In this document: piece by piece, positions 27,489 to 27,838 of the stretch
Numbering within the stretch: the stretch's first letter is position 1
Layout: every line of letters begins with the position of its first letter
Source of the DNA: Escherichia coli
GTDB taxonomy: Bacteria > Pseudomonadota > Gammaproteobacteria > Enterobacterales > Enterobacteriaceae
Reading direction: 5' to 3' (one strand)
Assembly (NCBI RefSeq): GCF_051903065.1
Contig: NZ_CP178438.1
Length of the DNA: 64,000 bases
Position numbers and translations under genes: made by a program
The notes under the pieces: model-generated
What the model was told of the DNA's origin: nothing
The model's database searches: none
What the model saw: only the letters and a program-made list of their open reading frames with translations

Positions 27489-27838
27489 GCAGTCAAAATA
27501 CGGGCGTTAGATTTTACAACGGTTGGTGATTTTTTGTTCGCATGATTAGCCATGTCTTTTTCACGGAAATAGTGTTTTATACTGGTTGGTGATTTCTTAT
27601 CGCTATATACCTCTGGTTTTTAGATCCCTCCTTGCTTTAAAACGTTATAAGCGTTTAAATTGCGCTTCAGGTGCTGTCATACTGACTGCATTAACGCGGT
27701 AAATCGAAAAACTATTCTTCGCCGCGCCTGGTTGGGAGTATTTCCCGCTAAAATTGTTTAAATATACCGCTGTATCATCCCCAGGGATTGGCACAAAAAT
27801 TTAACGTTACAACACCACATCCACAGGCAGTATGATTT

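Follow-up and report, generated by a model that had tools for sequence, protein, structure and literature searches.

Direct repeat upstream of the Escherichia coli brnQ promoter: its relation to Lrp binding, its conservation and a deletion allele

Lrp-bound promoters and the anatomy of the brnQ upstream repeat

The ilvIH, livJ and livK genes of E. coli are branched-chain amino acid genes with Lrp-bound upstream regions. Their Lrp-bound regions and the region upstream of brnQ, a transport gene, are alike in being A/T-rich and in lying upstream of the sigma-70 promoter of a branched-chain amino acid gene. The likeness extends to Lrp binding in vitro, seen for brnQ by genomic SELEX, and to one or more good consensus-like sites near -90. 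The brnQ region differs from them in carrying a repeated 12-mer that is not an Lrp motif. The second system to which this locus can be compared is the set of classical deletion hot spots in lacI, where deletion between short direct repeats occurs by replication slippage or RecA-independent recombination. Here we describe the repeat upstream of brnQ in a 64,000-nucleotide stretch of E. coli DNA (the window), to which all positions refer unless K-12 coordinates are named.

The repeat lies in the 406-bp spacer between the coding sequences of phoR (26137-27432, + strand) and brnQ (27839-29158, + strand). This spacer is present at an identity of at least 95% in 5424 of 5426 complete E. coli genomes, and the MG1655 reference record carries no annotation in it. 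The intrinsic terminator of phoR occupies 27458-27488 on the + strand; it consists of a hairpin at 27458-27481 plus a T-run, and its stem is conserved in the Enterobacteriaceae alignment. Kim et al. 2012 (PMC3415461, supplementary file 2) reported a single brnQ transcription start at K-12 position 418,645, with a leader of 170 nt, and their table places phoR at 417113-418408 and brnQ at 418815-420134. K-12 positions (version 2 coordinates) were converted to window positions by subtracting 390,976. The 51 nt printed upstream for the brnQ start are identical to 27619-27669 of the window. Because both this sequence and the gene coordinates match, the brnQ transcription start is placed at 27669. 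The start site published for Klebsiella pneumoniae brnQ is orthologous to it.

The sigma-70-type core promoter belonging to this start (27612-27668, + strand) is near-invariant in 79 species of Enterobacteriaceae. We read its putative hexamers by eye as TTGCTT (-35, 27632-27637) and TAAATT (-10, 27656-27661), with an 18-bp spacer and a G+C-rich discriminator, GCGCTTC. A promoter scan of 27380-27900 returned no promoter-like site on either strand. The TTTACA and TATACT motifs within the repeat copies were considered as promoter hexamers and rejected, since they form no promoter-like pair and the mapped start is elsewhere, at 27669. An Rfam scan with E-values up to 10 found no family in the spacer; it gave a weak chance match to a tmRNA fragment across the end of phoR.

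Both copies of the repeat are 3' of the phoR terminator and 5' of the brnQ promoter. Copy 1, TTTTACAACGGTTGGTGATTTTTT, occupies 27512-27535 on the + strand, which is -157 to -134 from the brnQ transcription start and 327-304 nt 5' of the brnQ ATG. Copy 2, TTTTATACTGGTTGGTGATTTCTT, occupies 27575-27598 on the + strand (-94 to -71; 264-241 nt 5' of the ATG), and the start site is 71 nt downstream of it. The first-pass annotation had reported near-identical 24-mers at these places with an exact 12-mer core and an offset of 63 bp. Its coordinates and sequences proved exact: 20 of 24 positions are identical, the start-to-start distance is 63 bp, and the 12-mer GGTTGGTGATTT is found at 27521-27532 and 27584-27595. 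In a gapped local alignment the similarity reaches 30 nt (24/30, one gap), and the alignment score of 29 was attained by 0.2% of shuffles, which averaged 15.7 +/- 2.7. The T-run of copy 1 runs on into a conserved block that is described below.

For a spacer of 406 bp and the same composition, an exact direct repeat of some 12-mer arises by chance with P = 0.013. Four distinct direct repeats that are 12 nt or longer and lie within 100 bp are found in the 64-kb window, and at least one such repeat occurs in 29% of Markov-1 random windows. The repeat upstream of brnQ is unusual for a single spacer of this size and less remarkable against a scan of the whole window. Apart from the brnQ repeat, the window has these exact direct repeats (12 nt or longer, within 200 bp): AATTCGCATTTGTA at 47878 and 47893 (15-bp offset, span 47878-47909), TGCTCATCTTGT at 22179 and 22278 (99 bp apart) and TTGCGCCGCTGA at 28170 and 28290 (120 bp apart, within brnQ).

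Lrp binding and Lrp-like sites around the repeat

The 63-bp distance corresponds to six helical turns, as would fit a protein that wraps or bridges DNA, for example Lrp. The first-pass annotation had suggested from this spacing that the copies are paired sites of a regulator, possibly of the Lrp type. On this view they would be a functional in-phase pair at which an Lrp octamer or hexadecamer docks and controls the brnQ promoter. Published data place Lrp in this region. The genomic-SELEX study of Shimada et al. 2015 (PMC5320599, Table S1) lists an Lrp peak in the phoR-brnQ spacer at K-12 position 418,534. This corresponds to 27558 of the window (-111), between the two copies. The array carried 60-bp probes at intervals of 105 bp, from which we estimate the peak position to be good to roughly 100 bp; with this probe spacing the peak marks the region and cannot assign binding to the copies. 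Comparison with mapped Lrp sites, which had been proposed as a check, thus places a peak in the spacer at a resolution too coarse to put it on either copy. A secondary statement of the review type in PMC4474525 names brnQ-proY among the Lrp-affected operons. The supplements of an Lrp ChIP-seq paper (PMC10127797), as far as accessible, do not mention brnQ, and we found no footprint or mutational data on brnQ in the accessible literature.

In a scan of the spacer for the Lrp SELEX consensus YAGHAWATTWTDCTR, the highest-scoring match was TAGTGTTTTATACTG at 27570-27584 (-99 to -85), with 13 of 15 positions on the + strand and 12 of 15 on the - strand, where 0.16 matches of this quality (13/15) would be expected. 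This site begins 5 nt ahead of copy 2 and extends over the first 10 nt of that copy. A weaker match (11/15) at 27505-27519 reaches 8 nt into copy 1. These two matches flank the cores and are 2 nt out of register relative to the copies. No match of at least 11/15 lies over either GGTTGGTGATTT core in the spacer scan, a count that may miss real sites because Lrp recognition is degenerate.

The Lrp-like sites were followed through the alignment of Enterobacteriaceae. The position aligned with 27570 scores at least 11/15 in 57 of 79 species and at least 12/15 in 26 of them, and the position aligned with 27601 scores at least 12/15 in 59. The family-mean score has maxima at 27505, 27538, 27570, 27601 and 27635, which are 31-34 bp apart. 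By eye these maxima are suggestive of a phased Lrp array. The autocorrelation of the score does not support such an array: for lags of 31-33 bp it does not exceed that of shuffles, whether in E. coli or in the 79-species mean.

An Lrp docking pair formed by the copies would fit the helical distance, the SELEX peak between the copies, the 13/15 site at the 5' end of copy 2, the spacing of the family-mean maxima and the citation of brnQ-proY as Lrp-affected. Against this, the cores are unlike the consensus, the flanking matches are off register and the autocorrelation signal is missing. In addition, the cores evolve fastest within the functional upstream region, and the similarity of the copies is absent outside Escherichia, as detailed in the next section. 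On balance we consider a functional Lrp pair unlikely. The guess of Lrp therefore has support for the region, with its SELEX peak at 27558 and a 13/15 site overlapping the 5' edge of copy 2. It is not supported for the repeated cores, which have no match of at least 11/15, have their flanking matches out of register, are polymorphic and fast-evolving, and lose their similarity outside Escherichia. In the mechanism that we propose, the upstream region binds Lrp in vitro, and its best Lrp-like site is made up of the 5 nt ahead of copy 2 and the A/T-rich 5' end of that copy. Lrp most likely acts through this degenerate A/T-rich site at 27570-27584, a putative contact, possibly with neighboring ones.

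The copies could also be paired sites of another sequence-specific regulator, acquired in the Escherichia lineage. In favor of this are the exact 12-mer repeated at a helically phased distance and the conserved block beside copy 1, which shows that other proteins probably bind the region. However, the motif has no further upstream copies in the window; the only other occurrences of GGTTGGTGATTT in the 64 kb are two one-mismatch matches, both within long open reading frames. The cores are polymorphic within E. coli, and in a comparison by eye we found no fit to the consensus sequences of NtrC, TyrR, CRP, Nac or Pho-box sites. This explanation appears very unlikely.

Conservation of the copies and the A39 deletion

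For the conservation analysis, 80 loci were retrieved from Enterobacteriaceae genomes on the basis of BrnQ. In nearly all of them phoR is the gene next upstream and the spacer measures about 400 bp, and the comparisons were made over 79 species. Conservation across the spacer is very uneven. The promoter (27612-27665), the block TTTTTTGTTCGCATGATTAGCC (27530-27551), parts of the leader and a C/A-rich stretch before the start codon are near-invariant. Copy 2 falls in the stretch of the upstream region where conservation is lowest; its core is poorly conserved, with majority-base fractions of 0.3-0.6, and the core of copy 1 keeps scattered positions only. Within Escherichia, 3 of 12 positions (25%) are variable in each core, as compared to 12.6% in the spacer, 3.7% in the conserved block and 1.9% in the promoter. 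The cores are thus the fastest-evolving part of the functional upstream region, with twice the average variation of the spacer. In a small sample of E. coli the variants were at 27520, 27522, 27529, the length of the T-run and 27585. The copy 1 core of K-12 reads GATTGGTGATTT, with the variant at 27522.

In E. coli, 20 of 24 positions agree between the orthologous copies; E. albertii and two other Escherichia lineages show 17, Citrobacter shows 12-14, and the median over the 79 Enterobacteriaceae is 9/24. This fall from 20 to 17 to 9 argues that the similarity is derived and specific to Escherichia, and that the copies were not a pair of sites in the ancestor. Orthologous promoters gave no sign of purifying selection on both copies (25% against 12.6% variable positions; median identity 9/24). 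In Escherichia sp. MOD1-EC7003 the cores have diverged to GATTGGTGGTTT and GGATGATGTTTT. The same strain carries about 700 bp of tandem REP/BIME-like units (L006:1390-2090; roughly six copies of about 117 bp) at the phoR terminator, and this insertion lengthens its spacer to about 1150 bp.

Absence of the repeat from other E. coli strains, which the first-pass annotation had named as counter-evidence to its reading, was not observed. With a 140-bp query across both copies, 5423 of 5424 E. coli genomes were found to keep both. With an identity of 95% or more in the spacer throughout the species, this retention does not discriminate between the readings. The proposed conservation analysis went against paired sites: the cores vary at twice the rate of the spacer, and their similarity is gone outside Escherichia while the brnQ promoter is nearly invariant. 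Judged by these comparisons of sequence, the repeat is not a conserved pair of regulator sites. We lean, by a small degree, toward the reading that it is a lineage-specific similarity between two segments of the region upstream of the sigma-70 brnQ promoter, and that its core is not a recognition unit under selection. The identity of the GGTTGGTGATTT cores would have arisen on the Escherichia or E. coli branch by a small number of substitutions, either from drift or perhaps from local gene conversion. We infer that the repeated core is probably without function.

The one genome of the 5424 that failed to cover the 140-bp query is that of strain A39 (NZ_CP028737). Its spacer is 343 bp, exactly 63 bp shorter, and it retains one hybrid copy, TTTTACAAC-GGTTGGTGATTT-CTT. 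The deleted stretch includes the block that is conserved throughout the family. A39 is therefore a derived deletion and not an empty site, and the full-length state is ancestral. The junction resembles the signature of deletion between short direct repeats, as read from the junction only in a single isolate in which an assembly error is possible. As in the lacI hot spots, the endpoints are inside the two copies, one 63-bp unit is gone and one hybrid copy is left. The A39 case differs from lacI in being one natural isolate among 5424 genomes, with its mechanism deduced from the junction alone. In the reading that we prefer, the repeat would serve as a substrate for slippage or recombination, by which one 63-bp unit was deleted in A39. 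This role as a mutational substrate is the only consequence of the repeat that is visible in the data.

Direct repeats that bound a 63-bp unit, together with a strain without one unit, might also be taken as what is left of a 63-bp tandem duplication, or as a target-site duplication or footprint left by a mobile element. No array was reported by Tandem Repeats Finder, and the similarity between the units ends after their first 24-30 nt; past the first 24 nt they agree at 10 of 39 positions, a figure that shuffles equal. The family-wide conserved block lies between the copies, so the full length is ancestral and A39 is derived. The 140-bp stretch across both copies has a single place per E. coli genome, and the repeat scan found no inverted repeat involving either copy. 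With a single place, no inverted repeat and no Rfam match, the stretch does not resemble REP/BIME or ERIC sequences or miniature transposons. Duplication and mobile-element origins, to which we gave hardly any credence, are effectively refuted.

Conserved elements upstream and within the brnQ leader

The conserved block TTTTTTGTTCGCATGATTAGCC(ATG) occupies 27530-27556, which is -139 to -113 from the brnQ start, and its 22 bp at 27530-27551 lie directly 3' of the copy 1 core. In 71 of 79 species exactly 106 bp separate the block from the promoter anchor, the other eight being without a recognizable block, and the sequence between the two varies freely. This fixed spacing indicates that copy 2 sits in a linker which is constrained in length and not in sequence. 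Within the promoter, a 17-bp palindrome, AAACGTTATAAGCGTTT, is found at 27640-27656 (-29 to -13), between the -35 and -10 elements. It is near-invariant in the 79 species and perfect (AAACGCT-ATA-AGCGTTT) in Buttiauxella and Cedecea, and there is no second copy of it in the 64-kb window. The palindrome looks like the operator of a dimeric regulator and is a candidate for one. When the block and the palindrome were compared by eye with the consensus sequences for Fur, Zur, PurR, MalI, KdgR and NadR, none fitted convincingly.

We also considered whether the repeats belong to a small upstream open reading frame or an RNA element. A 16-codon frame, MISHVFFTEIVFYTGW, exists at 27542-27592 with its stop codon in copy 2, and the same ATG opens a frame of 32 or 38 codons in 28 other species. 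However, 23 of 79 species lack the ATG, and in 17 the frame is cut to 7-8 codons. Third codon positions show no excess variability (entropy 0.72, 0.69 and 0.70 for the three positions), and neither Pfam nor NCBIfam gave a match for the frame, nor Rfam one in the spacer. The region lies 5' of the mapped start site and 3' of the phoR terminator, and the MG1655 record annotates nothing there. A coding or RNA role of the repeats is extremely improbable.

The 170-nt untranslated leader of brnQ (27669-27838, + strand) follows from the mapped start site. Just 5' of the brnQ start codon it contains an invariant C/A-rich block, CAACACCACATCCACAGGCAGTA (27810-27832), which fits a GcvB R1 target, and brnQ is a published GcvB R1 target (PMC9299463). 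Pairing of the R1 region of MG1655 GcvB with this block is predicted at -20.5 to -22.8 kcal/mol; for the entire leader, a rough comparison with shuffles returned P = 0.07. RNAalifold found essentially no conserved structure in the 170-nt leader (-0.37 kcal/mol, 4 pairs).

Several other features of the leader were noted. A 12-nt inverted repeat, TCATACTGACTG and CAGGCAGTATGA (27677-27688 and 27824-27835), allows base pairing between the 5' end of the leader and the ribosome-binding region; its duplex reaches -18.6 kcal/mol (z = -2.7) in E. coli and is weak in most other species (median z = -0.74). The stretch CTGTCATACTGACTGCAT at 27674-27691 (+6 to +23), beside the phoBR operon, bears a loose likeness to a Pho box, with its CTGTCAT half-site; it is not conserved in Klebsiella or Kluyvera. 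At 27789-27804, TGGCACaaaaaTTTAA resembles a sigma-54 -24/-12 element but is without the -12 GC, and its TGGCAC is confined to Escherichia in the alignment. An RpoN-holoenzyme genomic-SELEX peak at K-12 position 418,832 (about 27856 of the window) has been assigned to the phoR-brnQ spacer (PMC8743547).

What is functional in this spacer had been published before, namely the promoter and start site of brnQ, the binding of Lrp in vitro and the control of the leader by GcvB. Our analysis gives the exact position of the repeat with respect to the mapped promoter. No further regulatory unit can be demonstrated in the repeat, which matters little in itself. The conserved block at its 106-bp spacing and the 17-bp palindrome are much better candidates for experiments than the repeat. 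A recent gain of function specific to Escherichia may be compatible with the conservation data. We regard it as distinctly improbable that Escherichia recently evolved a second in-phase copy of a protein-docking sequence 63 bp away, altering the assembly of Lrp or another protein at brnQ. If this were true, the control of branched-chain amino acid uptake would have been rewired in E. coli relative to other enteric bacteria. More generally, exact short intergenic repeats can be lineage-specific accidents even inside protein-bound regions.
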